64,000 bases of DNA from Spirochaetales bacterium (lineage in GTDB: Bacteria > Spirochaetota > Spirochaetia > UBA9216): the NCBI GenBank assembly GCA_016839055.1, contig JAEKNX010000001.1:303693-367692 (forward strand). The letters are read 5' to 3'. Each line of letters starts with the position of its first letter. Position 1 is the stretch's first letter. A model generated the notes under the pieces. It was given only the letters and a program-made list of their open reading frames with translations, did no database searches and had not been told where the DNA came from. The position numbers were made by a program, and so were the translations under genes. Positions 2,576-35,883 of this stretch are shown piece by piece.

Positions 2576-3238
2576 GTGATTGAAGAAAAGGAAACAATTT
2601 TAGATCAAAAGGTTACTCGTCGGGATTTTCTCAAGATATCAGGTATGTCTGTATTGGGAATATCGGCGGTATCATGGCTATTTCCCGGATGCAGCAATGC
2701 TGTAAATGACGAAGTGATGTTATTTGAGAATGCGTCGGGAGTGATCGTTCACATCTCCAATAGATGTACAGGCTGTCTGTTATGTGAATCTACATGTTCG
2801 GTAGTTAATGACGGAAAAGCAAGTCAGACCACAGCAAGAGTGAAGATCAGCAGGAACTTTGCATATGGCCCTGAGGGAGTCACGGGGGCTTGGTGGAATA
2901 ATCCCGGCGATATGGGTAATTTTAAACTGGTGGCGGAAACCTGCCGGCAGTGTGAAGTTCCCGCATGTGCTCTTGCCTGTCCGGAACAGGCTATTTATCA
3001 GGATAAAAAGACGGGTGCGAAAATTGTTGATGCCGAGAAATGTATTGGCTGTGGTACCTGTACCGCCGCTTGCCCTTGGAATATTCCTACTGTTGATCCT
3101 GATTTAAAGGTTTCAACCAAGTGTGTTTTATGTCATGGCTACCCCGGCTGTGTTTCAACATGTCCGACAGGAGCTCTTAATTTTGTGACCTGGGAAGATG
3201 CTATACAGAAGTATAAAGAGCATTTCAAGGTAAGCTGA
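2576..3238 (+). CDS. Tat-signal 4Fe-4S poly-ferredoxin electron-transfer subunit (YdhX/AorA-like)
   Basis: 220 aa. N-terminal twin-arginine signal TRRDFLKISGMSVLGISA. Several CxxCxxCxxxCP ferredoxin motifs (CTGCLLCESTC, CRQCEVPACALACP, CIGCGTCTAACP). Sits directly upstream of the AOR gene. GTG start with a GGAAGGA RBS. Confidence 0.75.
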   Translation: MIEEKETILDQKVTRRDFLKISGMSVLGISAVSWLFPGCSNAVNDEVMLFENASGVIVHISNRCTGCLLCESTCSVVNDGKASQTTARVKISRNFAYGPEGVTGAWWNNPGDMGNFKLVAETCRQCEVPACALACPEQAIYQDKKTGAKIVDAEKCIGCGTCTAACPWNIPTVDPDLKVSTKCVLCHGYPGCVSTCPTGALNFVTWEDAIQKYKEHFKVS

Positions 3239-3278
3239 AGAGCATCGACTGAACAATAAAAACACATAGGAGAAAGAC

Positions 3279-5396
3279 ATGGCAATTAATGGCGGATGGG
3301 CAGGAAAAACTCTTAGAGTAAATCTGTCTACAGGCAATATAACTACAATAAATACAGAAAATTTCAAGAGATATATCGGTGGAATGGGCATTGGCTACAA
3401 GGTTCTATGGGATGAAGTTCCTGCCGGAACAAAGGCTTTTGATGAAGCAAACAAAATCGTATTCGGTGTAGGTCCTTTGACAGGAACCGGAGCAATTTGT
3501 TCAGGAAGAACAAATATTACAAGTCTTCTTCCCTCAAACCCTTACAATGCAGTAAGTGACAGCCACATGGGTGGACATTTCGGAGTTGAACTCAAGTATG
3601 CCGGATGGGATGCTATCATTGTTGAAGGAAAATCATCCAGACCCGTATGGCTCAAGATTGTTAATGATAAGGTAACAATAGAAGACGCAGGACTGTTTTG
3701 GGGGAAGGGAACCTTCGATACCATAGCCGGAATTACGGCAATGATGGGACAGGAAAGCCAGGTAGCGGCTATCGGTCAGGCCGGTGAGAATCTTGTAAAT
3801 CTCAGCGTTATCAGAACCGGTCCTAGCCACTCAGCCGGAGGTCATGGAGGAGTTCTTGGCTCCAAGATGCTGAAAGCCATCGGTATTATGGGAAGCGGCG
3901 CTGTTAAAATTGCCGGCGACAAGATGAAATGGCATGAGCTGAATCAGTATACTCTCAGCATAGTCGGCGCAAATAATCAGCATGTTGTTCCGCGGACACC
4001 ACAGCCCTGGGCGGAATACAATCATCCCGGAAGCCGATGGACGGCTAAAGAAGGATTATATTGGGAAAAAGCAGATCCTCCTATTGAGACAGGAATCTGT
4101 ACACCGGAAGAAAACCATAAGATCGGCTTCCGGACAATGAAATCAATGCTTGATATTGGTAAAAATGGGCCTAAGTATACGGTGAGAATGGGCGGCTGCG
4201 CATCCTGTCCGATTCGATGTAAATCACATCTCGAAGTTCCTCAACTAGAGAGGTATGGTGTTCCTACTCATGTGGCTAACACCTGTATGGGATTCTATAC
4301 TCCATGGGGCGTTATTGCTCCATTTTCCGGTAATAAAGCCAATGTCCCGGGTGAGTCTGAAGATGATTCACTGGTAATCGCCAAGGCGCTCGGCACATAT
4401 ATAGCGGATGATTATGGTGTCTGGGGAAACTACGGCCAGATAGGACGCGACTTTCACTGGACTTATAAGAATGATGTCCTGAAAAGAGTTCTTCCCGCAG
4501 CTGAGTACAACAGCATAAACTGGGAACAGCTCAAGGCTGGAGATCCTGAGTTTTTCAAGGATTTTTATCGTCGCATAACTTTTAAGGAAGGAGAACTCAG
4601 CCATTTAGGTGACGGAGCTTTCCAGATTTCAGAGAGATGGAACCTCGGTGAAGACTATTGGACATACAAGGGAAATAAACTCTGGACCAAAATGGGATAT
4701 CCAGTTCATCATAGTAATGAATCTGACGGTCAGGTCGGCGCTGTTATCAGTGTTCTGTTCAACCGGGATGCTCAATGTCATACGCACCAGAATTTTATTG
4801 GAAGCGGACTCCCGACTGATCTGCAGAAGGAAATAGCCGCCGAGATGTGGGGCGGGCCGGAAGCCATTGATGCTCCTGCTGATTATAAACCCATGACCAG
4901 AGCAAAGGCTAAATTCGCTAAGTGGAGTGTTGTCAGGAATCTTCTCCATGATAGTCTCACCGTATGTAACTGGATGTGGCCCTTCATAACCTCACCGCTT
5001 AAGGATAGAAACTATCGTGGTAATACTGCTCTTGAATCACTCTATTATACAGAGGCCACAGGAGAGACTATTACTGAAGATGAGCTAGACCTCCAGGCGG
5101 AAAGACTCTTTACCCTTCACAGGGCTCTTACTGTCAAGCAGATGGGTACCGTCGATATGAGAAACAAGCATGATCAGCTTACCGGCTGGCAGTTTGATAT
5201 GGATCCCGACAAGAAGGCCTTCACCCCTGGGACTATCAAGCTTGACAGGGACGATTTTGAAACAACACTTACGATGTTTTATGAAGAGATGGGCTGGGAT
5301 GCTAAGACAGGTTCTCCTACAAGGGCTACACTAGACAAGCTCGGACTCGGATATGTAGCTGACGAGCTGGAAGTTTTGAAGCTTCTTCCTGTCTAG
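3279..5396 (+). CDS. Aldehyde:ferredoxin oxidoreductase (AOR) family tungsto/molybdo-pterin enzyme, YdhV-like long form
   Basis: 705 aa. The N-terminal MAINGGWAGKTLRVNLSTGNIT domain 1 and the overall pattern match the AOR family (AFOR_N plus AFOR_C). Its length (~700 aa rather than ~605) and the adjacent Tat ferredoxin mirror the E. coli ydhX-ydhV arrangement. Confidence 0.85.
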   Translation: MAINGGWAGKTLRVNLSTGNITTINTENFKRYIGGMGIGYKVLWDEVPAGTKAFDEANKIVFGVGPLTGTGAICSGRTNITSLLPSNPYNAVSDSHMGGHFGVELKYAGWDAIIVEGKSSRPVWLKIVNDKVTIEDAGLFWGKGTFDTIAGITAMMGQESQVAAIGQAGENLVNLSVIRTGPSHSAGGHGGVLGSKMLKAIGIMGSGAVKIAGDKMKWHELNQYTLSIVGANNQHVVPRTPQPWAEYNHPGSRWTAKEGLYWEKADPPIETGICTPEENHKIGFRTMKSMLDIGKNGPKYTVRMGGCASCPIRCKSHLEVPQLERYGVPTHVANTCMGFYTPWGVIAPFSGNKANVPGESEDDSLVIAKALGTYIADDYGVWGNYGQIGRDFHWTYKNDVLKRVLPAAEYNSINWEQLKAGDPEFFKDFYRRITFKEGELSHLGDGAFQISERWNLGEDYWTYKGNKLWTKMGYPVHHSNESDGQVGAVISVLFNRDAQCHTHQNFIGSGLPTDLQKEIAAEMWGGPEAIDAPADYKPMTRAKAKFAKWSVVRNLLHDSLTVCNWMWPFITSPLKDRNYRGNTALESLYYTEATGETITEDELDLQAERLFTLHRALTVKQMGTVDMRNKHDQLTGWQFDMDPDKKAFTPGTIKLDRDDFETTLTMFYEEMGWDAKTGSPTRATLDKLGLGYVADELEVLKLLPV

Positions 5397-5411
5397 GTTT
5401 TAAGGATTAAA

Positions 5412-5969
5412 ATGTCTGAAGTAAAAGCGGATGAGACCGAACGTCTCATCCGTGACAAAATAGTAAGTCTTATCAGAGATAATTCAGCTAAGGGGGTAGT
5501 TTCTTCATTGAAGAAACTACAGACCAGCGCTTCCGATTGTGGAGATCTTTCCGGTTTTTACGGAAAGATCTCTCAACATACTGATTGTTCCGATATAAAG
5601 GAGATCTCAGGAGGCGACGGGCTCTACTATTACAGCAGTGGACGGATGTCAGATAGTTATGCAAAGTTAGCGGTGATGCTCGAGGAAAAGGATCTGCTTA
5701 ATTTAATAGTTTCTACTATTAGAGATGAAAGCAGGATCTATCCGAGGACAACTGCGGCCGAGGTATTTATTGAGGCTCCGTATTCAATACCTCAGGAAGA
5801 TATGAATGAATTCCTTAAAATAATTGAAACAGATGAGCGGTTTCCAGATATTGATAGTTGTCGGACGTCTATTGATTCAGTATATCTTTACTCAACGGAT
5901 TACATTCCTAAAGCTCAGGCGGAATATCTCAGTGAATGGGATGCAGTAGGTCAATATGAAAGTCAGTAA
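5412..5969 (+). CDS. Hypothetical protein, possible AOR-operon accessory/chaperone
   Basis: 185 aa, no recognised motif. Translationally coupled between the AOR gene and the FdhD-like gene. Confidence 0.4.
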   Translation: MSEVKADETERLIRDKIVSLIRDNSAKGVVSSLKKLQTSASDCGDLSGFYGKISQHTDCSDIKEISGGDGLYYYSSGRMSDSYAKLAVMLEEKDLLNLIVSTIRDESRIYPRTTAAEVFIEAPYSIPQEDMNEFLKIIETDERFPDIDSCRTSIDSVYLYSTDYIPKAQAEYLSEWDAVGQYESQ

Positions 5970-6612
5970 GTCTGTAAAACCAGAGCATCTTCCACTTGTT
6001 GCGGAAGTAAAATTCCAGATGTTTATAAATGGGATTTATTATTCGGATTTTTTATGTACGCCAGATTCTATAACTGAGCTGGTTACGGGTAATCTTTATG
6101 TAAACAGTAATATTACAGCGATTGAGGATATTGAAAAAATATGTATAAACGGTTATAAGATTGATGTAATCGTGGCCGACACCGAAGGCCGAACGGAACG
6201 GGCGAAGACTTCAGGTGAATTTTCGCCGCCCGGGCTTGAAAAGCTGATAGAGTTTGCAAAGTTAATGTTTGATAGAGCAGCGATTTACAAAGAGTATGGC
6301 GGAATACACTGTAGTGCTCTGTCTGATGGAATAAATCTTATTGCTTTTAATGAAGATATTGGCAGGCACAATGCTTTTGACAAGGTTGTCGGAACAGCCC
6401 TGATGAAAGATTTCGAGCTAGATAAACTTATTTATATTACATCGGGCAGAGTTAATCTTGAAGTTATGAATAAAGCTGTGGCTTGCGGGATTCCATTAAT
6501 AGTGTCCCGTAGTATAATGTCGAGCGCCGCTTTTGATCAGGCTGAAAAAAACGGGACTATGGTTATTGGTAGAATATTAACTGCCGAACCGTTTGTCTAT
6601 GAAGGGAAATGA
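5956..6612 (+). CDS. FdhD/NarQ-family (sulfurtransferase-like) cofactor-maturation protein, short form
   Basis: 218 aa. N-terminal VNG..TP.SI.EL..G-like region and a C-terminal GIHCSAL...DIGRHNAFDKVVG...SGRVNLEVMNKAVACGIPLIVSRS block characteristic of FdhD. The catalytic Cys-pair loop is not evident. Confidence 0.65.
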   Translation: MKVSKSVKPEHLPLVAEVKFQMFINGIYYSDFLCTPDSITELVTGNLYVNSNITAIEDIEKICINGYKIDVIVADTEGRTERAKTSGEFSPPGLEKLIEFAKLMFDRAAIYKEYGGIHCSALSDGINLIAFNEDIGRHNAFDKVVGTALMKDFELDKLIYITSGRVNLEVMNKAVACGIPLIVSRSIMSSAAFDQAEKNGTMVIGRILTAEPFVYEGK

Positions 6613-7376
6613 TACTTATGTCGGAAAAGACTATTGATATAAATTCTACAATGGCATTTAAGGCGCACTTTAAAGTTCTTAAAAGAACTCTTATGGTATC
6701 TCTAATAAGCCTTACCTGTGGCAGCATTGTCTGTTTTATATTCTTTGAACCTATAGTTGAGTTTCTTTACACCCCTTTCCTGGGGATTGAAGGCAATGGG
6801 ACAAATGATACCCTGTTTATAAACAATATCTTTGAGGGTTTCTTAACAAAACTTAAAATTTCGATTTTATCCGGATTTACACTGAGTTTCCCGATAATCT
6901 TGTTTAAAATTCTGCAGTTCATTTTTCCTGCCTTGGGGAAAAAAGAAAAAAAGGTTATACTTTATACTCTTTTAGTGAGTGCTGTATTAGTATTGGTGGG
7001 TTTTTATTATAGTTACTATATGATCCTGCCGCTGACAATAGAATTCTTCACCAGTGTAGGGTTTCTGCCAGATAATGTCGGCATCCTGCTTAACTACCAG
7101 AACAACATAATATATATTTTTAAGTTCATTTTTATGATTATGGTCACCTTCCAGTTTCCCGTTTTAATGGAGATGCTGATGGTTACAAACATTATTGAGA
7201 GGAGCACTCTGATTGGGTTAAGCCGTTTTATAATTGTAGGTGTTTTTCTGCTGTCGGCATTGATAACGCCTCCGGATTTTATTTCCCAATGCATGATAGC
7301 CTTTCCAATGGTTTTTTTGTACTTTCTTGCTATTTTTATTGCAAAAGTTTTTAGATTCGGTGAGAAGAGGGAATAG
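6609..7376 (+). CDS. tatC: Twin-arginine translocase subunit TatC
   Basis: 255 aa polytopic membrane protein. The N-terminal H(F)KVLKRTL resembles the TatC HLxELRxRL motif, and the C-terminal LITPPDFISQ matches the TatC TPPDxxSQ motif. Overlaps the upstream gene (ATGA). Confidence 0.8.
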   Translation: MILMSEKTIDINSTMAFKAHFKVLKRTLMVSLISLTCGSIVCFIFFEPIVEFLYTPFLGIEGNGTNDTLFINNIFEGFLTKLKISILSGFTLSFPIILFKILQFIFPALGKKEKKVILYTLLVSAVLVLVGFYYSYYMILPLTIEFFTSVGFLPDNVGILLNYQNNIIYIFKFIFMIMVTFQFPVLMEMLMVTNIIERSTLIGLSRFIIVGVFLLSALITPPDFISQCMIAFPMVFLYFLAIFIAKVFRFGEKRE

Positions 7377-7381
7377 TAATA

Positions 7382-7726
7382 ATGAACGGCAATGGACTTG
7401 GAATAAGCGAATTATTAGTTCTCCTGGTTGTAATACTTGTTTTTATAAAACCGGCTGACATGCCTAAAGCGGTTCGATTAATCGGGAAAGTATGGGCAAA
7501 ATTTTATCTTTACTTCTCAATGTTTAAGAGGGAATTTAGAAGGCTAGAAAATGAGATTGGTATTGAAGACGAGATGAAGGAAATACGGGCGATAAATGCA
7601 CAGTTGAAAGGTGAAGTTGTATCACTTAGAAATAGTGTTAATATAATTGAAAAAAAAGAAATTGATGAGATGAAAAGTAATGCTGATAAAAGCATAGATC
7701 AGGATAACAAATCTAAGGAGAAATAG
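7382..7726 (+). CDS. tatB: TatA/TatB-family protein (TatB-like, extended charged C-terminus)
   Basis: 114 aa. N-terminal GISELLVLLVVILVFIKPADMPKAVRLIGK is the TatA/B transmembrane-plus-amphipathic-helix signature, followed by a long charged tail as in TatB. Confidence 0.7.
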   Translation: MNGNGLGISELLVLLVVILVFIKPADMPKAVRLIGKVWAKFYLYFSMFKREFRRLENEIGIEDEMKEIRAINAQLKGEVVSLRNSVNIIEKKEIDEMKSNADKSIDQDNKSKEK

Positions 7727-7727
7727 A

Positions 7728-7892
7728 ATGCTTGGATCTACAGAGATTATTGTAATTGGTGGTGTGATTGTCTTATTATTTGGGGCAAGTGCTATTCCCA
7801 AATTTGCTAAATCATTAGGCCGTGCCAAGAAAGAATTTAAAGACGGCGTGAATGAGGGACTGGAAGAGCAGGATAAAGAAGAAAAGAAATAA
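7728..7892 (+). CDS. tatA: Twin-arginine translocase subunit TatA
   Basis: 54-aa ORF, too short for the ORF track. MLGSTEIIVIGGVIVLLFGASAIPKFAKSLGRAKKEFKDGV... is a canonical TatA. It starts 1 nt after the tatB stop, with an AAGGAG RBS inside the tatB 3' end. Confidence 0.7.
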   Translation: MLGSTEIIVIGGVIVLLFGASAIPKFAKSLGRAKKEFKDGVNEGLEEQDKEEKK

Positions 7893-7979
7893 TATTATTA
7901 CAGATTATCTAATTTTTTACTTGTTATGATATAGTCTTACTAGTTAAATATGATATTTCACGATATTGAGAGGTTTTAT

Positions 7980-10181
7980 ATGGAAAATAAAAGAATAGTT
8001 ATCCTCGGCGGAGGATATGCCGGGATTGAAGCGGCGAAAAAATTAAATAAAAGATATAAGAAGAATGATAAGGTAGAGATTACCCTCATAGATAAAAATA
8101 CATATCATACTCTCATGACTGAACTTCATGAGGTGGCCGGCTCCAGGGTTGAGCCTGATTCAGTGATGGTAAGTTATGAGAGAATTTTTTCCGGCACCAA
8201 GGTAAATGTTGTTACCGATTTCATCACCGGCATTGATTTTGAGACACAGAAACTCAAATCAGATAAGACTGCCTATGATTATGATTATCTGATTCTTGGA
8301 ACAGGCGGTGCTCCGGAATTTTTTGATATTGACGGAGTTCAGGAAAACTCTTTTTCACTCTGGTCTCTTGAAGATGCAATGCGTATACGAGAGCATTTTG
8401 AAGAACGATTCAGACTGGCTGCAAAAGAACCTAATCCGGAAATCAAAGCGAGAATGCTTACCTTTGTTGTAGCCGGCGCCGGATTTACAGGTATTGAGCT
8501 TATAGGTGAATTTCTTGAACGTCGTGATGTTCTATGCGTAAAATATCATATTCCTGTTTCAGAAGTGAAAATGATAGTCGTGGAAGCTCTCGATACTGTG
8601 CTTCCGATTATAGAAGAGAAACTCCGCAATAAAGCAGTTAAATACCTGGAAAAGAAGGGAACGCAGATTATTCTTGGCGCGCGCATAACGGGTGCTGCCG
8701 AAGGCAAGGTTCTATTAGCCGACGGTTCGGAAATCGCTACAGATACCTTCATCTGGACCTGTGGTATTCATGGTTCCGAGTTTACCTCCAGGATTGATCT
8801 TACAAAGGGACACACCGCAAGAGGCGAGTGCAGCAAAGCATCAGCTGATGGTATTCACGGGATGAGCGGTTGTCGTTTTGAGGATGACGAGCGCTACATT
8901 GTCGGAATACGGGGAAGAATTCTTGTAAATGAATATATGCAGACAGTGGATTATAAAAATGTCTTCGCAGTTGGAGATAACCTCTGGTTTGTCGAGCATG
9001 AGAAAGTTCTTCCTCAGATTGTAGAGACGGCCCTCCAGACTGGAGAGACCGCTGCACTAAATATCATCGCAGATATAGAAGATGCTGAAAAGCATGCGTT
9101 CAAATCTAACTTCCATGGTTTCATGGTTTCCATAGGCGGCAAGTATGCCGTGTCTAACGCCGGCGGAATGAAGACCTCCGGGTTCATGGCTATGGTAATG
9201 AAGCATTTTGTGAATCTGCATTACCTTTTCGGGATTGCCGGTGTAAATTCTGCCTGGGGATATCTGAAACATGAGTTTTTCGAGATGAAAGATAGAAGAA
9301 CTTTTATCGGTGAACATCTTTCATGGAAGATCCAGGGATGGTGGACAGCCCCGCTTAGGGTTTGGCTTGGTGTTATGTGGCTGACCGAAGGACTTAATAA
9401 GATAGGAGAAGGCTGGCTTAACTTTTCTGCTGGAACAAAATCAAGCTGGATGTTCAGCCAGGGAATTATACAAAGGGGTGTTAAAGCTGCCGCAGATGGA
9501 GTCAGCGCAGCGTCCGGGGCTGTAGAATCCGCCGGTGTTTCCCATGGCGACATGACGGCTGTTTTTGACGCTGCCGCAAAGAACGCATATTCCTTAACAG
9601 ATACCGTAGCCGCAGCCTCCGGCGCGGCTGAAGAAGTTGTCGCCGACACCATCAGTGCCGCCTCTGGCGCAGCCGAGACAGTGGTCAGCGCGGCAGCTGA
9701 TGCGGTGAGCGCCGCGTCGGGCGCTGTTGCGGATACAGCCTCACAAAGCCTGGAAGCAGTCGGTCATGTGTTCGGAAAACTCTGGGATACTGCCAATAAC
9801 ATCATTCCCTATGATTCTGCCTTTGTAACATGGTTCAGGGAGACATTTATGGACAGCCTGATGGCTTACATCCATTTCCCCGTTTTTCAGCTTATGATAG
9901 TCGTCATGGAACTCGGTATCGGACTCGCGCTTATAGGCGGACTCTTCACATGGGTTGCTGCAGCGGCTTCAATTGTAATGTGCGCGGTCTTCACCTTCTC
10001 GGGTATGTTCAGCTGGAATCAGGCTTGGTTTGTTTTTGCCGCCTTTCTTATGCTTGGCGGAGCAGGACGAAGTCTCGGTCTTGACCACTGGGTAATGCCT
10101 GCAATCAAGAAGTGGTGGAACGGTACTAAATTCGCCCGACGTACACACCTTTACCTCGGCGAACCAAGACTCAAGAAATAA
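7980..10181 (+). CDS. Type II NADH dehydrogenase-like flavoprotein (NDH-2) fused to a DoxX-family membrane domain
   Basis: N-terminal RIVILGGGYAGIEAAKKL dinucleotide motif and a second GAGFTGIELIGEF motif (two Rossmann folds, pyridine-nucleotide disulfide oxidoreductase class). An Ala/Ser-rich SAASGA repeat linker, then a C-terminal 4-TM DoxX-like domain (FPVFQLMIVVMELGIGLALIGG...). The start is more likely Met-11 (7980, GAGAGG RBS) than 7950. Confidence 0.7.
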   Translation: MENKRIVILGGGYAGIEAAKKLNKRYKKNDKVEITLIDKNTYHTLMTELHEVAGSRVEPDSVMVSYERIFSGTKVNVVTDFITGIDFETQKLKSDKTAYDYDYLILGTGGAPEFFDIDGVQENSFSLWSLEDAMRIREHFEERFRLAAKEPNPEIKARMLTFVVAGAGFTGIELIGEFLERRDVLCVKYHIPVSEVKMIVVEALDTVLPIIEEKLRNKAVKYLEKKGTQIILGARITGAAEGKVLLADGSEIATDTFIWTCGIHGSEFTSRIDLTKGHTARGECSKASADGIHGMSGCRFEDDERYIVGIRGRILVNEYMQTVDYKNVFAVGDNLWFVEHEKVLPQIVETALQTGETAALNIIADIEDAEKHAFKSNFHGFMVSIGGKYAVSNAGGMKTSGFMAMVMKHFVNLHYLFGIAGVNSAWGYLKHEFFEMKDRRTFIGEHLSWKIQGWWTAPLRVWLGVMWLTEGLNKIGEGWLNFSAGTKSSWMFSQGIIQRGVKAAADGVSAASGAVESAGVSHGDMTAVFDAAAKNAYSLTDTVAAASGAAEEVVADTISAASGAAETVVSAAADAVSAASGAVADTASQSLEAVGHVFGKLWDTANNIIPYDSAFVTWFRETFMDSLMAYIHFPVFQLMIVVMELGIGLALIGGLFTWVAAAASIVMCAVFTFSGMFSWNQAWFVFAAFLMLGGAGRSLGLDHWVMPAIKKWWNGTKFARRTHLYLGEPRLKK

Positions 10182-10249
10182 ATAATTGCGGCATCATTTC
10201 GGCGGCCTTTATCCAGGCTGCCGGAGTCGCCTTTCTTCAAAGGAATATT

Positions 10250-11224
10250 ATGCAAACGGTTTCAAGTTCAATTACTAATATACAGATGACTGAAGATCTG
10301 AAGCAGGTAAGGACGGTAATTGACGATCTCATAAAAGATACACCTGATATGATTCATGATATGATTTCCAATCTGCTCTCATGCAGTGGAAAGATGCTCC
10401 GTCCTATGATGGTAGTCCTTGCCGGTCGTTACGGCGATTTTGAGGCAGAAAAGATCTATTCTCTGGCAGCGGCAGTTGAGCTTCTTCATAATGCAACCCT
10501 TGTTCATGATGATATTATAGATGATGCTGCGCTCAGACGCGGTTTACCTGCAATTCATACAATACATGGTTCAAAGCTTGCAATTCTCGTTGGAGATTAT
10601 CTATTTTCAACATGCTTCGTGCTGGCGGCCAAAAACTCGAAGATTCAACATTATGACAGCCTCGCGCAGGCTGTTGCCCGAATATGCGAAGGGGAAATCC
10701 TTCAGGATACAGGGAAATTTGTCTTCGACCCCAGTGTTCGTAATTATAAACGAAGAATTGCCAGCAAGACAGCGGTTCTCTTTTCCCTGAGCCTCTATCT
10801 CGGCGCGAAGGAATCTGGTTGCAGTGAGACTGTGTGCTCTGTTTTTATACGAATCGGATACAATGTCGGAATGGCGTTTCAGATAATTGATGATATCCTG
10901 GATTTTACAGGTGATCCGAAGAAAATAGGAAAACCCGCATTTGGTCATGACCTGTCAGAGGGTATTTACACCCTGCCTCTGATTCTGGCTCTCAAGGACG
11001 GGGACGCGCAGCTTGAAAAGATGATGCGGAGACAGAGTCTCTCAAGGCGAAGAAGAAAAAAAATCGTCGGGATAGTAAGCATTTCGAGGGGGATGGAGGA
11101 CGCAAGAGGGGCCGCGGCTCTTTATTCCGAAAGGGCACTCAGGGAAATCGGACGGCTTGATGACGGATATACAAAAGATCAGCTGCTCAGCCTGACCTCG
11201 AGGCTGGTGTCGCGGGAATACTGA
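10250..11224 (+). CDS. Long-chain polyprenyl diphosphate synthase (IspB/HepT-like trans-isoprenyl diphosphate synthase)
   Basis: 324 aa with the first DDxxD motif (LVHDDIIDDAALRRG) and the second (FQIIDDILDF). Confidence 0.85.
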   Translation: MQTVSSSITNIQMTEDLKQVRTVIDDLIKDTPDMIHDMISNLLSCSGKMLRPMMVVLAGRYGDFEAEKIYSLAAAVELLHNATLVHDDIIDDAALRRGLPAIHTIHGSKLAILVGDYLFSTCFVLAAKNSKIQHYDSLAQAVARICEGEILQDTGKFVFDPSVRNYKRRIASKTAVLFSLSLYLGAKESGCSETVCSVFIRIGYNVGMAFQIIDDILDFTGDPKKIGKPAFGHDLSEGIYTLPLILALKDGDAQLEKMMRRQSLSRRRRKKIVGIVSISRGMEDARGAAALYSERALREIGRLDDGYTKDQLLSLTSRLVSREY

Positions 11225-11246
11225 GCAGAGAGCAGGTTTAAAGCAT

Positions 11247-11474
11247 CTACTCGAGGAAGGTTTTAATCCTTGGATGATCAGGATTACTGAAGAGCTTTTC
11301 TGTGGAAGCTCTTTCTCTTATTTCTCCCTCGTCTATGAATACGACCCAATCCGACACTTTTCGAGTGAAGGTCATCTCATGGGTAACTATTATCATTGTC
11401 ATATTGTCCTCTGCAAGGTTCTTGATGACCGAGAGAACCTCACCTGTTAATTCCGGGTCCAAGGCGCTTGTTGG
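11247..11474 (-). pseudogene. Remnant of an amino-acid ABC transporter ATP-binding protein (C-terminal ~75 codons only)
   Basis: The frame encodes ..PTSALDPELTGEVLSVIKNLAEDNMTMIIVTHEMTFTRKVSDWVVFIDEGEI.., which is the D-loop/H-loop/C-terminus of GlnQ/HisP-type ATPases. It begins immediately after an in-frame TAG. There are no Walker A/B motifs and no permease gene, and it lies directly downstream of the substrate-binding-protein gene. Confidence 0.6.
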
Positions 11475-11494
11475 CTAATCAAAGAGCATTACCT

Positions 11495-12304
11495 CTACCT
11501 TGCGAGGAGGATGTCCTCAGCAAACCATTTCTTTGAGATCTCGGCCGCAGTTCCGTCGGCGGCCATCTCGTCAATGACGTGATCAACGGCATGAATGAAG
11601 GCCAGTTCATCCTTTCGAAATCCAATTGCGTATTCCTCGGCGGCAAAGAAATCTTCTGCTATCTTATATATACCGGGTTTCCCGGAGAGGTAGTACCGGC
11701 CGAAAATCTCATCTACGACGACGGCATCAATCCTTCCGACTTCAAGATCCATCAGCGCCTGAACATTGTCCTGATATTTGACCAGTTCGGTAAAGCTTTC
11801 CATTACAGGGGTGTAACTCTTGACGGCATCTTCCGCGGTGCTTCCTAGCTGTATGCCGATCTTTTTGGCTGCGAGATCCGATTTCATACTGATTCCGGAT
11901 CCTGGCTGAACAATGATTATCTGCTTGTTTGCAATATAGGGCTTGGAGAACTCAATCTTCTCCTTGCGCTCATCAGAGATAGACAGTCTGTTCCAGATTA
12001 TATCGATGTTTCGGTTGTTAAGATCGAGTATCTTGGCATCCCAGTCTATAGGCTGAAGTTTCAGTTCAACTCCGAGTCTTTTGCAGACTTCCTTTGCCAA
12101 ATCAATATCGAATCCCGCTATTTCTCCGTTTGTATCCCTGAACCCCATCGGCGGGAAGCTGTCGTTTAGACCGATGATGATTTCACCCTTTTCCATAATA
12201 TACTTGAGAGATTTATCTCCGTTTGATGCTGATTCCTGAGTTCCTGCGGCAAATAGCATAGTTGTCAGCAGAAGTACAGCGAGGATAGAAGCGCTTCTTT
12301 TCAT
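11495..12304 (-). CDS. Amino-acid ABC transporter substrate-binding protein (family 3 SBP)
   Basis: 269 aa. Signal peptide MKRSASILAVLLLTTMLFAAG. Polar amino-acid SBP fold motifs (IIIGLNDSFPPMGF, IDIIWNRLSISDERKEKIEFSKPY). Confidence 0.85.
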   Translation of the reverse strand: MKRSASILAVLLLTTMLFAAGTQESASNGDKSLKYIMEKGEIIIGLNDSFPPMGFRDTNGEIAGFDIDLAKEVCKRLGVELKLQPIDWDAKILDLNNRNIDIIWNRLSISDERKEKIEFSKPYIANKQIIIVQPGSGISMKSDLAAKKIGIQLGSTAEDAVKSYTPVMESFTELVKYQDNVQALMDLEVGRIDAVVVDEIFGRYYLSGKPGIYKIAEDFFAAEEYAIGFRKDELAFIHAVDHVIDEMAADGTAAEISKKWFAEDILLAR

Positions 12305-15562: not shown

Positions 15563-16846
15563 ATGGATAAGGTAATAAACATCATTCTTGGAGGGGGGAA
15601 GGGTTCCAGACTTTATCCTCTGACAAAACAGAGGGCAAAACCCGCTGTGCCATTCGGTGGTAAATCCCGGCTTATAGACATTGCTATCTCAAACAGCATT
15701 AATTCGGGGTTTAGGAAAATATACATCCTGACACAGTATGAATCGGCTTCACTTAACTTCCATATCAATAGATCCTATCAGTTCGACAACTTCTCAAAAG
15801 GTTTTGTTGAGATACTGGCGGCAAGTCAGAATGATTATGACAACGGCTGGTATGAGGGGACTGCCGATGCCGTTCGGAAGAATATGAGTAATTTCAGGAA
15901 TCATAATCCTGATTACTATATGATTTTATCAGGCGACCAGTTGTACAGCATGGATCTGAAGGCATTTTTAAAGCAGCATAAGGAAAGCGGAGCCGAAATA
16001 ACAATAGCAGCCACTCCGGTTAATAGGGATGATGCGAATGAACTAGGTATCTTGAAAATAGACGATGAGAAGAAGATTATCTCCTTTCTCGAGAAACCGG
16101 GACCAGACAAGGATATTTCCGAACTTATTATTCCCGATGATATATTATCTGATTCCGGAATTGACCGCAGATCAGGGAAAAGTTTTCTTGCATCGATGGG
16201 TATTTATATTTTTAACGCAGATGTAATGGAAGAATGTCTGGATTCCAAATATACAGATTTCGGAAAGGAAATAATTCCTGAGAGTATAAAAACCCGAAAG
16301 GTTATGTCTTATGTTTATAATGGGTATTGGGAAGATATTGGAACTATTAAGAATTTCCATGAGGCGAATCTGAATCTGGGTTCCCCTCAGCCGAATTTCA
16401 ATCTCTATGATGAAGAAAAACCTGTTTATACTCATAGACGAAACCTTCCGCCGTCAAAAATCAATTCCTGCGTTTTTAAGCAGTCTCTGGCTGCCGAAGG
16501 ATCAATTATTACTGATGCTTATATAAATTATTCTATAGTAGGAGTAAGAACCATTATTCATGAAGGTGCATCTCTTGATTCAGTCTACTGTATGGGAAGC
16601 GATTTTTATGAGTCGCCCAAACAAGTTGCAAAGAATCGTACACAGGGAATACCGGATATTGGAATAGGCAGATCTGCGGTAATCAGAAAAGCAATAATTG
16701 ATAAAAATGCCCGTATCGGTGCTAACTGTAGAATAGGAATTGATAATATGGACAGGAAAGACGGTGACTACGGATTTTATCATATTGTTGACGATATAAT
16801 AATCATTCATAAGAATGCAGTAATTAAAGACGGCACCGTTATTTAG
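15563..16846 (+). CDS. glgC: Glucose-1-phosphate adenylyltransferase
   Basis: 427 aa. N-terminal IILGGGKGSRLYPLTKQRAKPAVPFGGKSRLIDIAISNSINSG is the ADP-glucose pyrophosphorylase signature, followed by a C-terminal left-handed beta-helix. Confidence 0.9.
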   Translation: MDKVINIILGGGKGSRLYPLTKQRAKPAVPFGGKSRLIDIAISNSINSGFRKIYILTQYESASLNFHINRSYQFDNFSKGFVEILAASQNDYDNGWYEGTADAVRKNMSNFRNHNPDYYMILSGDQLYSMDLKAFLKQHKESGAEITIAATPVNRDDANELGILKIDDEKKIISFLEKPGPDKDISELIIPDDILSDSGIDRRSGKSFLASMGIYIFNADVMEECLDSKYTDFGKEIIPESIKTRKVMSYVYNGYWEDIGTIKNFHEANLNLGSPQPNFNLYDEEKPVYTHRRNLPPSKINSCVFKQSLAAEGSIITDAYINYSIVGVRTIIHEGASLDSVYCMGSDFYESPKQVAKNRTQGIPDIGIGRSAVIRKAIIDKNARIGANCRIGIDNMDRKDGDYGFYHIVDDIIIIHKNAVIKDGTVI

Positions 16847-16855
16847 CGGGATAAT

Positions 16856-18838
16856 ATGGAAATACCCGGAATAATAAAAAATGATCCCTACCTGCAGCCG
16901 TATACGGAAAAGATAAACTATCGAATCAGACGGTTTACAGACATCAGATCAGAACTATATGAAAAGTCAGAAGGAAGCGGCAGGGCGTATGAGTATTACG
17001 GTGAACACCGCCTGGGAAACTCTATTGTTATCAGAGAATGGGCGCCCAACGCATCGGCAATTTTTCTGATCTGTGATCATAACAACTGGCGGAAGTCGGA
17101 GGAGCTTGCTTTCCGAAGACTCGGAAGCTATGGAGACTGGGAGATTATTGTTCCTGAGGCAATTCTTAAGCATGGGAGTCTTTACCGTTTGCTTGTAGAA
17201 TGGTCCGGTGGACAGGGAGAGAGAATTCCCGCCTATGCAAGGAGGGTCGTCCAGGATCCGCAGACCTATATTTTCAGTACTCAGGTGTGGTTTCCTAAAG
17301 AAGAATACCGCTTCAAGTATAAATCTGAAGACGCCGCCGGGGGCAGGCTGTTCATATATGAGGCTCATATCGGGATGGCTGTTGAAGAAGGGGGAGTCGG
17401 AACTTTTAGCGGATTCAGGGAGCATGTCCTTCCGCGGATAATAAGTTCGGGGTTCAACACAATTCAGCTGATGGCCCTGATGGAGCATCCGTTTTACGGC
17501 TCATTCGGCTATCAGGTTTCAAGTTTCTTCGCCTTATCTTCAAGATATGGAACCCCTGAGGAATTCAAACAGTTAGTTGACGAATGTCATAAAAACAATA
17601 TCAGGGTGATTATGGATCTTGTTCACAGTCACGCGGTTAAAAACGAGGTTGAAGGCATAAGCAAGCAGGACGGCAGTGATTTTCTATACTTTCATGAAGG
17701 CGGACGGGGCGACCATCCGGCCTGGGATTCTCGATGTTTCAATTACGGTAAACCTGGGGTTCGAAATTTCCTTCTCTCAAACTGTGCCTGGTGGATTGAA
17801 GAATATAACATCGATGGTTACCGTTTTGACGGTGTAACGAGCATGCTCTATAATGACCACGGACTGGGAGTGTCGTTTGACCACTACGACAAGTATTTCG
17901 ACGAAAATGTTGATGAGGACGCCGTCCTCTACCTTGCTCTGGCCAATGATCTGATTCACAGAATTAAACCGGAGGCGATCACAATAGCCGAAGATATGAG
18001 CGGACTGCCGGGCATAGCCGCCCCGCTAAAAGACGGCGGATGCGGCTTCGACTACCGACTTACAATGGGAATACCGGATTACTGGATAAAGCTTCTTAAA
18101 GAGGTGAGTGATGAAAACTGGAACGTCTCTGAAATCTGGAATGTTATGAATAACCGTAGATTCTCTGAAAAGCATATAGCCTACTGCGAGAGTCATGATC
18201 AGGCCCTTGTTGGAGACAAGACCTTGATTTTCAGACTTATTGACGCCGATATGTACAGCGGCATGAGCATCGGTTCCGGGTCGGTCAGGGTTGAGCGCGG
18301 TATTGCCCTGATTAAAATTATAAATTTGCTTACTATGTCCGCCGCCGGTGACGGTTATCTGAACTTCATGGGAAATGAGTTCGGGCATCCGGAATGGATT
18401 GATTTTCCAAGAGAGGGAAACGGCTGGAGCTATCATTATGCAAGGCGGCAGTGGTCGCTCGCCGATAATAAGGAGCTGCGGTATTCGAGGCTGCTTCGAT
18501 TTTCATCTGATATGCTTAAATACTGCGCCGGCTCACTCAATGCTCAGTATTCAAGACTTATAATGAGCAATAACAGCGATCAGATCCTTGCATGGGAACG
18601 CGGCGGGCTGATCTTCGTAATAAATCTGAACTCCAAGAGGTCGTTTACCGATTACGGAATTGAAGCCCCTGCCGGTAAATGGGTTCTGGTGCTTAACAGT
18701 GATTCGGAGATATATGACGGACACGGCAGGATTCCGGACGGACTTGAAATTTCTTCAGTAACGGATGAAAAAGGAGTCAGCAGGATAACACCCTATATTC
18801 CATCAAGGACCGCTCAGGTTTTTAAGAAAGCAGATTGA
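16856..18838 (+). CDS. glgB: 1,4-alpha-glucan branching enzyme, eukaryote-like GH13_8 type
   Basis: 660 aa. HPFYGSFGYQVSSFFALSSRYGTPEEFKQLVDECHKNNIRVIMDLVHSHA and the GYRFDGVTSM, EDMSG, CESHDQALVGDKT catalytic regions fit the GH13 branching-enzyme pattern. The VVHSHA form and length suggest the GH13_8 (eukaryote/Bacteroidetes-type) subfamily rather than E. coli-type GH13_9. Confidence 0.8.
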   Translation: MEIPGIIKNDPYLQPYTEKINYRIRRFTDIRSELYEKSEGSGRAYEYYGEHRLGNSIVIREWAPNASAIFLICDHNNWRKSEELAFRRLGSYGDWEIIVPEAILKHGSLYRLLVEWSGGQGERIPAYARRVVQDPQTYIFSTQVWFPKEEYRFKYKSEDAAGGRLFIYEAHIGMAVEEGGVGTFSGFREHVLPRIISSGFNTIQLMALMEHPFYGSFGYQVSSFFALSSRYGTPEEFKQLVDECHKNNIRVIMDLVHSHAVKNEVEGISKQDGSDFLYFHEGGRGDHPAWDSRCFNYGKPGVRNFLLSNCAWWIEEYNIDGYRFDGVTSMLYNDHGLGVSFDHYDKYFDENVDEDAVLYLALANDLIHRIKPEAITIAEDMSGLPGIAAPLKDGGCGFDYRLTMGIPDYWIKLLKEVSDENWNVSEIWNVMNNRRFSEKHIAYCESHDQALVGDKTLIFRLIDADMYSGMSIGSGSVRVERGIALIKIINLLTMSAAGDGYLNFMGNEFGHPEWIDFPREGNGWSYHYARRQWSLADNKELRYSRLLRFSSDMLKYCAGSLNAQYSRLIMSNNSDQILAWERGGLIFVINLNSKRSFTDYGIEAPAGKWVLVLNSDSEIYDGHGRIPDGLEISSVTDEKGVSRITPYIPSRTAQVFKKAD

Positions 18839-18846
18839 GGTTTGTA

Positions 18847-20814
18847 ATGAATAATATTAATGGTCCATTTGAGTTAGATAACGACCTTGAATGGCTGGAG
18901 ACAAATCAGGCGGGTGCGTTCTGCTGTTCTACAGTTCTTGACTGTCCGTCAAGAAAGTACCATGGCCTGCTTGTGACTCCCATCGAGGGGGCTGAAGGAA
19001 GATATCACATTCTTTCATCTGTCGACGCGGCGGTGAGCGGTAAGCCGGATTACACCCTCGGCACAAGCCGGTATCCAATGGCTGTTCACCCCGAATCATA
19101 TAAAAACCTAGACATGGTGGAATTGCTTCCATGGCCTGCCTGGCGTTACCGGAGAGACGGACTTGTAATCAGGAAAGAAGTGTTCATGTGTCCCGCACAG
19201 AAGGCTGTCTACCTAGTCTTCCTGCTCGAAGAAGGGGCCGCCCGGATTTGTCTTGATCTGAAGTTTCTGTTTACCTTCAGAAACAGCCATAATCTCACTC
19301 GAAAAAATAATGATATTAATCCGGAAATAAGAAAGGGTGACCGTCTCAGACTGAAACCTTATGAGGGGATGCCCGAAGTTGAAATTACATTTTCCGGGGA
19401 GTGGAGCCAGGAAGGCGATATATACTGGGATTATAACATCGAATATCCTGAAGAACTGGAGAGGGGGTTGGAATATTCTGAAGACAGATTCGTTCCTGGA
19501 CAGGCCTCGATATCACTCAATAAAGGCACTGCCTTTGTCATAAGGGTGGCTGTCGAACAGGACTCCGGGTTTGATCCTGGGCTTCTCCCCGGGATGAGGG
19601 ATGAGCAGTTGAAGATGAGGCAGAAAGATGTTGCCCTAATTGACCGCCCTGAAGCGCTTCTGAGGTATAATGCCAGGCATTTTATGCTCGTTAATCCTTC
19701 GGGTAAGAAGTCGGTGAATGCCGGATATCCATGGTTCGGTGAATGGGGCCGCGATACGATGATAGCTCTGCCAGGGCTTACCTGTTATAACGGCCATACA
19801 GATTCCTGTGTCGATGTTCTTTGTGACTACATCTCGATGATTAAAGACGGACTTCTTCCCAATACCCTTGGAGAGACTCAGGGGTATACTTCATATAATT
19901 CAATTGACGCGGGCCTGCTTTTCTGCAGAGCCGTAATTAATCTGATGAAAACAGGTTACGGCGTATCTGAGGCGGAGAAGAAAGTCCTGCATAAAAGATT
20001 TCTGCCCGCTGTTGAAGGACTTGTTGATGCCTTCATCCAGGGACGGGTTCCTGGAACAAGGCTCAATTCTGACGGACTAATTTCCTCGGGCAACAGGAAT
20101 ACGCAGCTGACATGGATGGATGCTACGGCCTGGGGCCATCCGGTGACGCCCAGGTGCGGTTTTGCTGTCGATATAAACGCCCTATGGTTTGACGCTCTTT
20201 GTCTTTGTCGAAGTTTAAGTGAAGCTGGCGGAAAAAGAGTGGCCCCGGCGGTTATTGTTCTGCTTGAGAGTATCCCTGAGAGTTTCCGGAAGATGTTCTG
20301 GATTGACGACGGTGAGTACCTGACTGATACTGTCTACGATGGAAAGCCGGACTATAAGATACGGCCCAACATGCTTTTCGCCTCATCCGCCACGGAAGGG
20401 CTTCTGGATGACAGGCAAAAAAAAGCGGTTGTCGCTGCGGCGCAAAGGCATCTGCTGACTCCGCTGGGGCTGCGGACCCTGTCTCCTGAAGATGAGGAAT
20501 TTTGCCCTTATTATACAGGTGGTCCTGATGAGAGGGATTCACGCTATCATCAAGGAACTGTATGGCCCTGGTTGCTTGGCATAATGATAGAGTCATCGAT
20601 AAATTGCTCAAATGAGCCTGTAAAAATTGCTGAATCATGGGCAGGGTATCTTGATAATTTACTGAAGATTCATCTTAATAATCAGGGATGGGGATTTATT
20701 TCCGAAATATTCGACGGAAGGACACCCGGGAAAGGCAAGGGCTGTTTTGCCCAGGCTTGGAGCAGCGGGGAGATTATAAGGGCATATTCCATCATTCAAG
20801 AAGTACTGAAATAA
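18847..20814 (+). CDS. Amylo-alpha-1,6-glucosidase / glycogen-debranching-enzyme C-terminal (GDE_C, (alpha/alpha)6-barrel) family protein
   Basis: About 655 aa. GYPWFGEWGRDTMIALPGL and the downstream acidic barrel motifs match the GDE_C family. The ATG at 18847 has a GAGG RBS; the ORF track started at an upstream TTG. Confidence 0.7.
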   Translation: MNNINGPFELDNDLEWLETNQAGAFCCSTVLDCPSRKYHGLLVTPIEGAEGRYHILSSVDAAVSGKPDYTLGTSRYPMAVHPESYKNLDMVELLPWPAWRYRRDGLVIRKEVFMCPAQKAVYLVFLLEEGAARICLDLKFLFTFRNSHNLTRKNNDINPEIRKGDRLRLKPYEGMPEVEITFSGEWSQEGDIYWDYNIEYPEELERGLEYSEDRFVPGQASISLNKGTAFVIRVAVEQDSGFDPGLLPGMRDEQLKMRQKDVALIDRPEALLRYNARHFMLVNPSGKKSVNAGYPWFGEWGRDTMIALPGLTCYNGHTDSCVDVLCDYISMIKDGLLPNTLGETQGYTSYNSIDAGLLFCRAVINLMKTGYGVSEAEKKVLHKRFLPAVEGLVDAFIQGRVPGTRLNSDGLISSGNRNTQLTWMDATAWGHPVTPRCGFAVDINALWFDALCLCRSLSEAGGKRVAPAVIVLLESIPESFRKMFWIDDGEYLTDTVYDGKPDYKIRPNMLFASSATEGLLDDRQKKAVVAAAQRHLLTPLGLRTLSPEDEEFCPYYTGGPDERDSRYHQGTVWPWLLGIMIESSINCSNEPVKIAESWAGYLDNLLKIHLNNQGWGFISEIFDGRTPGKGKGCFAQAWSSGEIIRAYSIIQEVLK

Positions 20815-20832
20815 ACATACAGAGGCAATAGT

Positions 20833-24871: not shown

Positions 24872-24881
24872 GAGTTGATAG

Positions 24882-33882: not shown

Positions 33883-33892
33883 GGTTGTGCTC

Positions 33893-35875: not shown

Positions 35876-35883
35876 AATTTCTC

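Follow-up and report, generated by a model that had tools for sequence, protein, structure and literature searches.

Why would an NADH dehydrogenase of the NDH-2 type, fused to a DoxX-like membrane domain, carry close to a hundred residues of repetitive alanine- and serine-rich sequence? The question is raised by a gene at positions 7980 to 10181 of a 64,000-nt stretch of DNA from Spirochaetales bacterium GCA_016839055.1 (contig JAEKNX010000001.1, 303,693-367,692 of the forward strand), referred to here as the window. An initial annotation, made from the letters alone, had described the product as an NDH-2 flavoprotein joined to a DoxX domain by a repeat linker. We propose instead that the protein is an Ndh2 of the type found in flavin-based extracellular electron transfer (FLEET; extracellular electron transfer, EET) and that its repeats, located in a periplasmic loop of the membrane domain, carry covalent flavin mononucleotide (FMN) at four sites. 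To this explanation as a whole we assign a probability of about 0.6.

We asked to which family the fused protein belongs. The open reading frame (ORF) runs uninterrupted from 7950 to 10181 on the + strand. ATG 7980 is its likely start, because a Shine-Dalgarno-like GAGAGG lies 6 nt upstream and the N-termini of homologues (M-x-x-K-R-I-V) fall at the equivalent position; the resulting product has 733 aa. An NCBIfam scan of this protein gave no match above cut-offs. BLASTP against the FLEET Ndh2 of Lacticaseibacillus (P0410; L and P numbers denote related loci and homologous proteins, respectively) returned 1e-97 over aa 1-480, which includes the first transmembrane helix (TM1), and 6e-21 over aa 637-715, covering TM2-TM4 and the tail. 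Alignment of the spirochaete C-terminal profile with the same protein by hhalign gave a probability of 99.7% (E 9e-27). The locus of P0410 holds genes for UbiA, UbiA, ApbE and FMN_bind on one strand and ndh2, NusG_II (EetA), Hpre_diP_synt_I (EetB) and polyprenyl_synt (DmkB) on the other. A search with a profile of the C-terminal domain only gave mostly gene fragments, and the full-length Bacillota relatives were obtained by an exhaustive phmmer search and a full-length profile. When the C-terminal 296 aa were compared by phmmer with 1.84 billion proteins, only 173 representatives matched, and nearly all of these are NDH-2 fusions or fragments of such fusions. In the full-length phmmer matches (552-736 aa), which include Lactococcus NoxB, the membrane domain is always C-terminal. 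The full-length profile added hundreds of Bacillota proteins of 600-660 aa (Lacticaseibacillus, Clostridium, Paenibacillus and others), many of them with DoxD/DoxX.

The Ndh2 of FLEET/EET loci is known from Listeria monocytogenes, Lactiplantibacillus and Lacticaseibacillus (Light et al. 2018, cited after PMC9888254 and PMC8238504). The Lactiplantibacillus protein appears as 'Pyr_redox_2 + DoxD, 3 TM, EET' in the supplementary data of Meheust et al. (2021), in whose definition an EET system is a flavinylation gene cluster that includes an NDH-2 bearing a transmembrane helix (PMC8238504). Our literature search for NDH-2 plus DoxX fusions found nothing relevant, and neither fusions nor transmembrane domains nor spirochaetes come up in a survey of NDH-2 evolution from 2025. 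Because of the homology and of a polyprenyl synthase neighbour described below, we regard the window gene as very probably a spirochaetal member of the FLEET Ndh2 family, an assessment made jointly with that of the insert anatomy. The covalent NDH-2-DoxX fusion that had been proposed is thus real, and the suggested check for other cases found it in the FLEET Ndh2 of Bacillota and in Lactococcus NoxB; hence it is not new, being the known Ndh2 architecture of FLEET. The Lactococcus lactis NoxB (667 aa, encoded by noxA-noxB) shares the fusion architecture, its C-terminal domain is found by phmmer from the C-terminus of the window protein, and its loop contains DAAAGAS and DAAAGAT; it differs in being paired with a canonical NDH-2 (NoxA), in having no adjoining polyprenyl synthase and in its identity of only ~35% over the C-terminal region. 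In L. lactis, noxAB is needed for ferricyanide EET, and the FLEET genes except pplA are reported there (PMC10221545).

The position of the repeats within the protein follows from the membrane domain. The Pfam DoxX score, 29.5 bits, exceeds the gathering cut-off of 23.6, and the match (aa 633-674) covers only profile positions 41-82 of 85. The beginning of the profile lies before the repeats: aa 457-494 alone give a weak DoxX match (positions 4-37, 14.6 bits, E 0.05), and a homologue that has no insert matches positions 5-81 in one stretch (21.2 bits, just under the cut-off). In the insert-less proteins P0029 and P0037 (576-581 aa), ...PLRIWLGVMWLL... runs straight into the helix equivalent to aa 633-653. 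DoxD, DoxX and MauE are among the matches in homologues, and DoxD/DoxX is precomputed for many of them. An AlphaFold2 (AF2) model of the 733-aa protein (mean predicted local distance difference test, pLDDT, 81) has four transmembrane helices at aa 452-476, 633-653, 657-673 and 679-695, with hydropathy support, and W455, R460, G464 and W467 in the first of these are invariant in 86 homologues. Since the first DoxX helix precedes the repeats and insert-less homologues match DoxX unbroken, we place the Ala/Ser-rich stretch of aa 505-601 inside the membrane domain; very probably, and jointly with the family assignment, it is a variable insert in the TM1-TM2 loop and not an interdomain linker. Thus the four-helix DoxX-like domain of the initial annotation stands, while its placement after the repeats does not.

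Loop length, composition and charge were computed for 120 homologues. The length of the insert ranges from 0 to 159 aa, its alanine content from 21 to 64% (mostly 30-55%), and K/R are nearly nil. The mean net charge is -10.3 for the TM1-TM2 loop, +5.5 for the C-terminal tail and +1.3 for the segment preceding TM1. Together with the necessarily cytoplasmic location of the NADH module, this charge bias fits an N-in/C-in topology with the repeat loop in the periplasm. Compared with the DoxX/DoxD family (PF07681, PF04173), the domain shares the four-helix membrane bundle and a Pfam DoxX score above the cut-off, and differs in being very divergent and split by a long loop insert. DoxD belongs to the thiosulfate:quinone oxidoreductase of Acidianus, according to its Pfam description.

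What the initial annotation missed is that the repeat core resembles the site recognized by the FMN transferase ApbE. The annotated stretch of ~90 Ala/Ser-rich residues with at least four imperfect repeats is indeed present: it spans ~97 aa (aa 505-601), is rich in Ala, Ser and Val, is acidic, and holds four copies of D-x-[VI]-[SA]-AASGA-[AV]-[EA] starting at aa 506, 541, 556 and 574. The ApbE site is D-x-x-[S/T]-G-A-[S/T]; its seven residues suffice for modification, FMN is esterified to the last residue, and Ser is accepted there (PMC12052999). Replacing Gly by Ala in this motif lowers flavinylation without abolishing it (PMC12052999). In spirochaetes, Ftp/ApbE has been shown experimentally to be a periplasmic FMN transferase (PMC4436053). 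The core in the window, D-x-[VI]-[S/A]-A-A-S, fits the ApbE motif at 6 of 7 positions, with Ala for Gly, and copy 2 is in addition without S/T at position 4. Positions 2-3 (A, then V/I) agree with known ApbE sites such as DVVSGAT of PplA, and Ala occupies position 2 in 79% of the copies.

For motif statistics, the TM1-TM2 loops of 99 spirochaete and 116 Bacillota-type proteins were compared with composition-preserving shuffles. The pattern D..[ST][GA]A[ST] was counted 149 times in the loops of the spirochaete set, where 1.6 occurrences are expected (~90-fold), and is absent (0) from the rest of the proteins. In the Bacillota-type loops, [ST]GA[ST] was observed 56 times against 3.7 expected, with 3 occurrences in the rest of the proteins, and D..[ST]GA[ST] 17 times against 0.2 expected, with none elsewhere; peptides with TTSGAS and DATSAAS are examples from Lacticaseibacillus. 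Either the relaxed form or the bare core is present in 96/99 spirochaete and in all 116 Bacillota-type loops. Some spirochaetes have the canonical Gly form (DAASGAT three times plus DAATGAT in L021, DGGSGAS in L060, DAGSGAT in L020), and loops of ~20 variable residues retain exactly one copy, e.g., DAASAAT in Alkalispirochaeta. Between species the number of copies per protein varies from 0 to 7. The suggestion that the repeat region may differ in length is thereby borne out at the species level (0 to ~160 aa), with recent expansion at the DNA level in some lineages. That the TM1-TM2 loop is modified with FMN is a somewhat better than even prospect; that the FLEET-family Ndh2 is itself an ApbE substrate, with the site amplified to as many as seven copies in Spirochaetota and to four in the window, we hold to be slightly on the probable side.

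Matching codon-level repeats in the DNA, which the initial annotation had also reported, were not found: neither Tandem Repeats Finder nor a repeat finder detected a tandem array in 9300-9900. The four 33-nt units are 58-73% identical; of the 7-9 positions at which their amino acids agree, 0-4 have the codon in common as well. This low codon sharing among units suggests that the copies are old and kept at the peptide level only, and the idea of a slippage-prone linker was dropped for the window as there is no DNA-level array. In a Treponema metagenome-assembled genome (MAG; L064, 1610-1755), by comparison, the 11-aa unit forms a recent DNA array of 33 bp x 4.4 copies at 92%, and a Marispirochaeta MAG (L013, 11591-11709) has 54 bp x 2.2 copies at 80%. 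Unlike in the window, copy number therefore appears to be still evolving by duplication in some lineages.

We then considered the genes around ndh2, using 86 related loci with 10 kb on either side. A polyprenyl diphosphate synthase lies directly downstream in 84/87 sequences (the 86 loci plus the window), and the synthase of the window is 33% identical (E 7e-59) to that of the Lacticaseibacillus FLEET locus. This near-universal neighbour backs the link to quinones that had been drawn before. apbE occurs within 10 kb in 20/86 loci and adjoins ndh2 directly in ~17, where at least two layouts are seen, with apbE either upstream and divergent or immediately behind the synthase; two of the ApbE assignments were confirmed with Pfam at E 1e-89 and 1e-90. 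In the same 86 loci we found EetA-like NusG_II in 15, UbiA in 10 and a PplA-like lipoprotein with D-x-I-S-G-A-[ST] in ~12, and there was no clear case of eetB, the single match (L031, E 3.6e-4) being marginal. FLEET-like clusters exist, then, in Spirochaetota. The PplA-like genes, missed by Pfam at E <= 1e-4, are present in ~12 loci, so that a neighbouring apbE speaks less strongly for Ndh2 as its substrate. apbE stands beside ndh2 with no PplA-like gene detected in two Salinispira loci (L003, L049), in L024, L040, L061, L076, L080 and L084, and in Clostridium (L089). In the last of these, from Clostridium swellfunianum (6576-11849), the order is apbE | ndh2-eetA-eetB-dmkB, no FMN_bind/PplA gene was found within 8 kb, and the Ndh2 loop carries TSGAS and EATSGAS; this cluster fits Ndh2 being the local ApbE substrate. 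Where apbE, eetA-like or pplA-like genes are clustered, the mean loop length is 87-93 aa, versus 121-123 aa where they are not, and the corresponding motif counts are 1.9-2.0 versus 2.2-2.3; the expectation of more motif copies where no PplA-like gene is nearby is met by a weak trend only.

Two of the PplA-like lipoproteins, both below Pfam FMN_bind detection at E <= 1e-4, contain two FMN-site repeats each: the protein of L077 (13942-14844, - strand) has the canonical DAISGA[ST], and that of L078 (8929-9780, - strand) has D-x-I-S-G-V-[ST], with Val for Ala.

Compared with the FLEET Ndh2, the window protein has in common the NDH-2 module with a homologous DoxX/DoxD-like domain, the dmkB-type synthase downstream and the motif-bearing TM1-TM2 loop, and related spirochaete loci hold apbE, eetA-like (NusG_II) and pplA-like genes as FLEET loci do. 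It differs in that its host is diderm, so that the loop would face the periplasm rather than the cell wall, in that the loop motif is multiplied (four copies; up to seven in relatives) with Ala for Gly, and in an extra insert with a Cys pair; between ndh2 and the synthase, eetA/eetB are missing. With the known substrates of ApbE/Ftp (PplA, NqrC/RnfG FMN_bind and the multi-flavinylated proteins of PMC8238504), the loop shares a predicted extracytoplasmic location, a putative heptapeptide site D-x-x-[S/T]-[G/A]-A-[S/T], sometimes in several copies per protein, and apbE nearby in related loci. Those substrates have Gly where the window has Ala; furthermore, the sites in the window, whose flavinylation is a prediction from sequence, lie in the disordered loop of a membrane enzyme without FMN_bind (PF04205) or another recognized flavin fold.

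In the mechanism that we propose, the cytoplasmic NDH-2 module would oxidize NADH on its flavin adenine dinucleotide (FAD) and reduce a membrane quinone, presumably (demethyl)menaquinone, whose prenyl chain would be supplied by the co-located polyprenyl diphosphate synthase. The module is fused to the DoxX/DoxD-like four-helix bundle, the first loop of which (TM1-TM2) would face the periplasm, and a periplasmic flavin transferase would esterify FMN to the last Ser of each motif copy (S512, S547, S562 and S580). Electrons could then pass from NADH via FAD and (demethyl)menaquinone to the loop flavins and on to periplasmic acceptors, a direction and a set of partners that are likewise presumptive. 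A single polypeptide would in this way reach from an NADH site in the cytoplasm, over a quinone site in the membrane, to a short string of flavins in the periplasm, the latter being a built-in counterpart of the separate PplA.

How well does this explanation hold against others? Several observations weigh against a flavinylated periplasmic loop. Ala replaces the canonical Gly in 97% of spirochaete copies, and copy 2 lacks the S/T of position 4. The motif region has pLDDT <50 and is apparently unstructured, and no FMN pocket is predicted, even in a second AF2 model, that of a minimal-loop homologue (aa 503-530), which served as a test for an ordered pocket at the motif and whose outcome we rate as neutral. 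TM1 is only moderately hydrophobic, which bears on the predicted periplasmic position of the loop, and the existence of insert-less family members means that the insert is dispensable for the core enzyme. Within the 64-kb window there is no apbE, eetA, eetB, pplA-like or dmkA gene, and in ~12 spirochaete clusters a PplA-like lipoprotein could by itself explain the apbE neighbour. We found no experimental report of flavin on any Ndh2; a 2025 ApbE review names PplA alone as a flavinylated EET component, and in the flavinylation literature searched neither Ndh2, DoxX nor spirochaetes are named in this respect. The loop might accordingly be unmodified, an Ala-rich acidic spacer, helical stalk or docking surface for periplasmic partners, with the D-A-V-S-A-A-S core kept for helix packing (small-xxx-small) or partner binding and with electrons leaving via quinol only. 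Such a role would suit the repeat periods in homologues, which cluster at 11, 15, 18 and 22 residues, that is, whole alpha-helical turns, and the long helix that AF2 draws with low confidence over aa 558-601, as well as the prevalence of Ala, the lack of a predicted pocket, the lack of apbE in the window and the PplA-like substrates that account for some apbE neighbours. However, in a packing motif one would not expect Asp (-6), S/T (-3) and S/T (0) to stay in register in both phyla, Spirochaetota and Bacillota, amid variable surroundings, and packing leaves unexplained the interchange with exact canonical D-x-x-S-G-A-T in many members, the one copy still held by ~20-residue loops and the apbE genes that adjoin ndh2 at loci without another detected substrate. 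We therefore consider an unmodified loop rather unlikely, though it deserves to be taken seriously.

The other explanations are weaker. The Ser/Thr of the motif might receive a different extracytoplasmic modification (O-glycosylation or phosphorylation), or the A-x-A-rich loop might be a processing site. The terminal S/T is indeed conserved in an exposed, disordered and predicted periplasmic loop, and the start of some window copies, D-T-[VI], may be reminiscent of the Bacteroidota O-glycosylation sequon D-[S/T]-[aliphatic]. The D-T-x start is not conserved, though, given that position 2 is mostly Ala; unlike apbE, neither glycosyltransferase nor kinase genes recur in the neighbourhood, and the register of the heptapeptide is that of the ApbE motif at all but one position. 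This possibility thus seems quite improbable. Still less credible is the linker of the initial annotation, in which the SAASGA repeats would form a flexible cytoplasmic tether between an NDH-2 and a four-helix DoxX domain that are each complete. It draws on a Pfam DoxX match that starts after the repeats and on the predicted disorder of the repeat region, and it is already contradicted by the split of the DoxX profile, whose first half matches the helix before the repeats, by the insert-less homologues that join TM1 to TM2, and by TM1 itself, a confident helix with four invariant residues; in addition, loop and tail carry strong charges of opposite sign, negative and positive, respectively. 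Finally, the fusion could be an artefact, a frameshift or a chimeric assembly of two genes, which had been named as the finding that would undo it. The sole point in its favor is a rise of G+C to 0.60 over the repeat region. Against it, NCBI holds a 100% identical protein ('FAD-dependent oxidoreductase' of a Spirochaetales bacterium MAG, on a 552-kb contig), full-length proteins fill the top 120 matches to the protein, and the genomes of at least 80 spirochaete species encode a full-length homologue, some of these on complete chromosomes (Marispirochaeta, Salinispira and Breznakiella). The 80 best loci from species-representative genomes, all of Spirochaetota (Marispirochaeta, Salinispira, Breznakiella, Gracilinema, Alkalispirochaeta, Oceanispirochaeta and Treponema among them), have a full-length homologue in 80/80 cases, and Bacillota share the same architecture. 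Conservation across Spirochaetota therefore shows that the ORF is not an assembly join, and the chance of an artefact is negligible. The FLEET-type Ndh2 with a flavinylated loop remains the explanation that we prefer. The features on which it is built are collected in Table 1.

Table 1. Features of the ndh2 gene and its downstream neighbor (positions in the window; aa, residues of the 733-aa product).
Feature	Positions	Strand	Basis
Shine-Dalgarno-like GAGAGG	7968..7973	+	6 nt before ATG 7980; read from sequence
CDS (coding sequence), 733 aa + stop; FLEET-type Ndh2 homologue (NDH-2 + DoxX/DoxD-like membrane domain)	7980..10181	+	ORF list; BLASTP
NDH-2 module, aa 1-434, including C-terminal amphipathic membrane-anchoring helices aa 402-434	7980..9281	+	phmmer, Foldseek, AF2
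First dinucleotide-binding motif LGGGYAG (aa 9-15; FAD)	8004..8024	+	sequence; G10, Y13, G15 invariant in 86 homologues
Second dinucleotide-binding motif GAGFTG (aa 166-171; NADH)	8475..8492	+	G166, G168, F169, T170, G171 invariant
Lineage-specific ~40-aa insert (aa 271-311) with Cys pair C284/C298	8790..8912	+	alignment gap; pLDDT 58-68
TM1 (aa 452-476, PLRVWLGVMWL)	9333..9407	+	AF2 25-residue helix, pLDDT ~92; weak DoxX match
Conserved proximal loop part, aa 477-504, GEGWLNFSAGTKSSWMFSQG...	9408..9491	+	conservation profile; pLDDT ~86
Variable Ala-rich acidic insert, aa 505-601, four motif copies	9492..9782	+	pLDDT <50
Motif copy 1, DGVSAAS, aa 506-512; predicted FMN acceptor S512	9495..9515	+	
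Motif copy 2, DTVAAAS, aa 541-547; relaxed match, Ala at position 4; predicted acceptor S547	9600..9620	+	
Motif copy 3, DTISAAS, aa 556-562; predicted acceptor S562	9645..9665	+	
Motif copy 4, DAVSAAS, aa 574-580; predicted acceptor S580	9699..9719	+	
Conserved distal loop part, aa 602-632, WDTANNIIPYDSAFVTWFRETFMD...	9783..9875	+	conservation; pLDDT 72-92, helix 614-625
TM2 (633-653), TM3 (657-673), TM4 (679-695)	9876..10064	+	Pfam DoxX, hydropathy, AF2 helices
Basic C-terminal tail, aa 696-733, predicted cytoplasmic	10065..10178	+	8 K/R vs 2 D/E
Polyprenyl diphosphate synthase, DmkB-like	10250..11224	+	Pfam polyprenyl_synt, E 4.8e-64

Judging from profile matches and the predicted structure, residues 1-434 are a genuine NDH-2. 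Pfam finds Pyr_redox_2 at aa 5-266 (E 6e-37) and Pyr_redox at aa 162-240 (E 1e-9), and both GxGxxG motifs are present (GGGYAG at aa 10-15, GAGFTG at aa 166-171). The nearest solved relative is the NDH-2 of Caldalkalibacillus thermarum (4NWZ; phmmer E 8.6e-67 over aa 3-423). Foldseek against the PDB, which informs on the NDH-2 fold only and not on the membrane domain, gave target-normalized TM-scores of 0.92-0.94 to 4NWZ, to the Staphylococcus aureus NDH-2 5NA1 and to Bacillus subtilis YjlD, with sulfide:quinone reductases and FSP1 scoring below the NDH-2 structures. pLDDT exceeds 90 across most of aa 1-430. The two dinucleotide-binding folds of NDH-2 type noted at the outset are thus confirmed.

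Canonical NDH-2 enzymes (4NWZ, 5NA1) share the fold, both Rossmann motifs and the C-terminal amphipathic anchor helices; they are monotopic and without a transmembrane domain, whereas the window protein carries the DoxX-like one. Two further differences lie within the module itself. The quinone-site motif AQxAxQ reads VExAxQ here (V348-E349-T-A351-L-Q353; aa 348-354, 9021-9041), with the second Gln retained and E349 at the place of Q317, the clamp of the quinone head group in C. thermarum. Glu349 is invariant in the 86 spirochaete homologues and also appears in the Bacillota FLEET-type consensus VExAEQ; Glu at the quinone clamp may mark this Ndh2 subfamily and the quinone that it prefers. The second difference is the extra 40-aa Cys-pair insert, which falls opposite a gap in 4NWZ (query 270-310 vs target 269-276) and has the consensus TARGECSxASxEGIHGMxGCxF. 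Among 37 spirochaete sequences C298 is invariant and C284 is conserved in at least 90%, with the spacing C-x13-C. The insert is missing from the C. thermarum NDH-2, from Bacillota Ndh2 and from Sediminispirochaeta P0071, and could be a redox-active or metal-binding hairpin.

Further observations concern the surroundings of the gene. The insert-less short forms (L005, 6001-11428; L006; L016) have 573-590 aa and a TM1-TM2 loop of 3-8 aa without the motif; at these loci a GMC-family oxidoreductase gene lies between ndh2 and the polyprenyl synthase, followed by a UbiA prenyltransferase on the opposite strand, and apbE is absent. Between ndh2 and the synthase of the window there is a hairpin (10196-10227) with a 13-bp stem and a weak T-tract; terminator-like sites of the region are not above those of shuffled sequence. 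Upstream of ndh2, an operon at 2576-7892 encodes a 4Fe-4S protein with the twin-arginine (Tat) signal TRRDFLK followed by a lipobox-like LFPGCS, an enzyme of the aldehyde:ferredoxin oxidoreductase (AOR) family (tungsto/molybdopterin) without a signal of its own, a 185-aa protein without Pfam match, FdhD, TatC, a TatB-like protein and TatA. This arrangement suggests a Tat-exported periplasmic AOR-type enzyme. A functional link between ndh2 and the Tat/AOR operon was set aside: the neighbourhood is common only to the closest relative (L007, Ca. Thalassospirochaeta sargassi) and was treated as coincidental. Elsewhere in the window (15563-26345, 28108-30312 and 32074-35929) are a glycogen synthesis/degradation cluster, a Pta/acetate-kinase-like fusion ORF, and an [FeFe]-hydrogenase with a NuoF/GltD-like flavoprotein, with iron-dependent alcohol dehydrogenase (Fe-ADH) and rubrerythrin upstream. 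No cytochrome oxidase, Rnf or Nqr genes were among the window ORFs scanned. By its gene content, in which a classical respiratory chain is not seen, the window looks like that of a fermentative anaerobe.

Taken together, we read the gene as very probably a FLEET-type Ndh2 of a fermentative diderm spirochaete, in a reduced locus and with a multiplied putative flavinylation site. If the loop is unmodified, the gene adds just one more ordinary enzyme, with a variable loop of low complexity, to a known family. If it is flavinylated, the entry enzyme of FLEET would also be an extracytoplasmic flavoprotein, which would change the accepted electron path: a missing redox centre would be added to the scheme Ndh2 -> demethylmenaquinone -> EetA/B -> PplA, and a single gene would provide a minimal transmembrane conduit from NADH to the periplasm. 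This could explain EET without PplA, e.g., in L. lactis and at the Clostridium and Salinispira loci, and the prediction applies equally to the enzymes of Listeria, Lactiplantibacillus and Lactococcus. FLEET-like electron export would thereby be extended to fermentative diderm spirochaetes, where it could serve the regeneration of NAD+.

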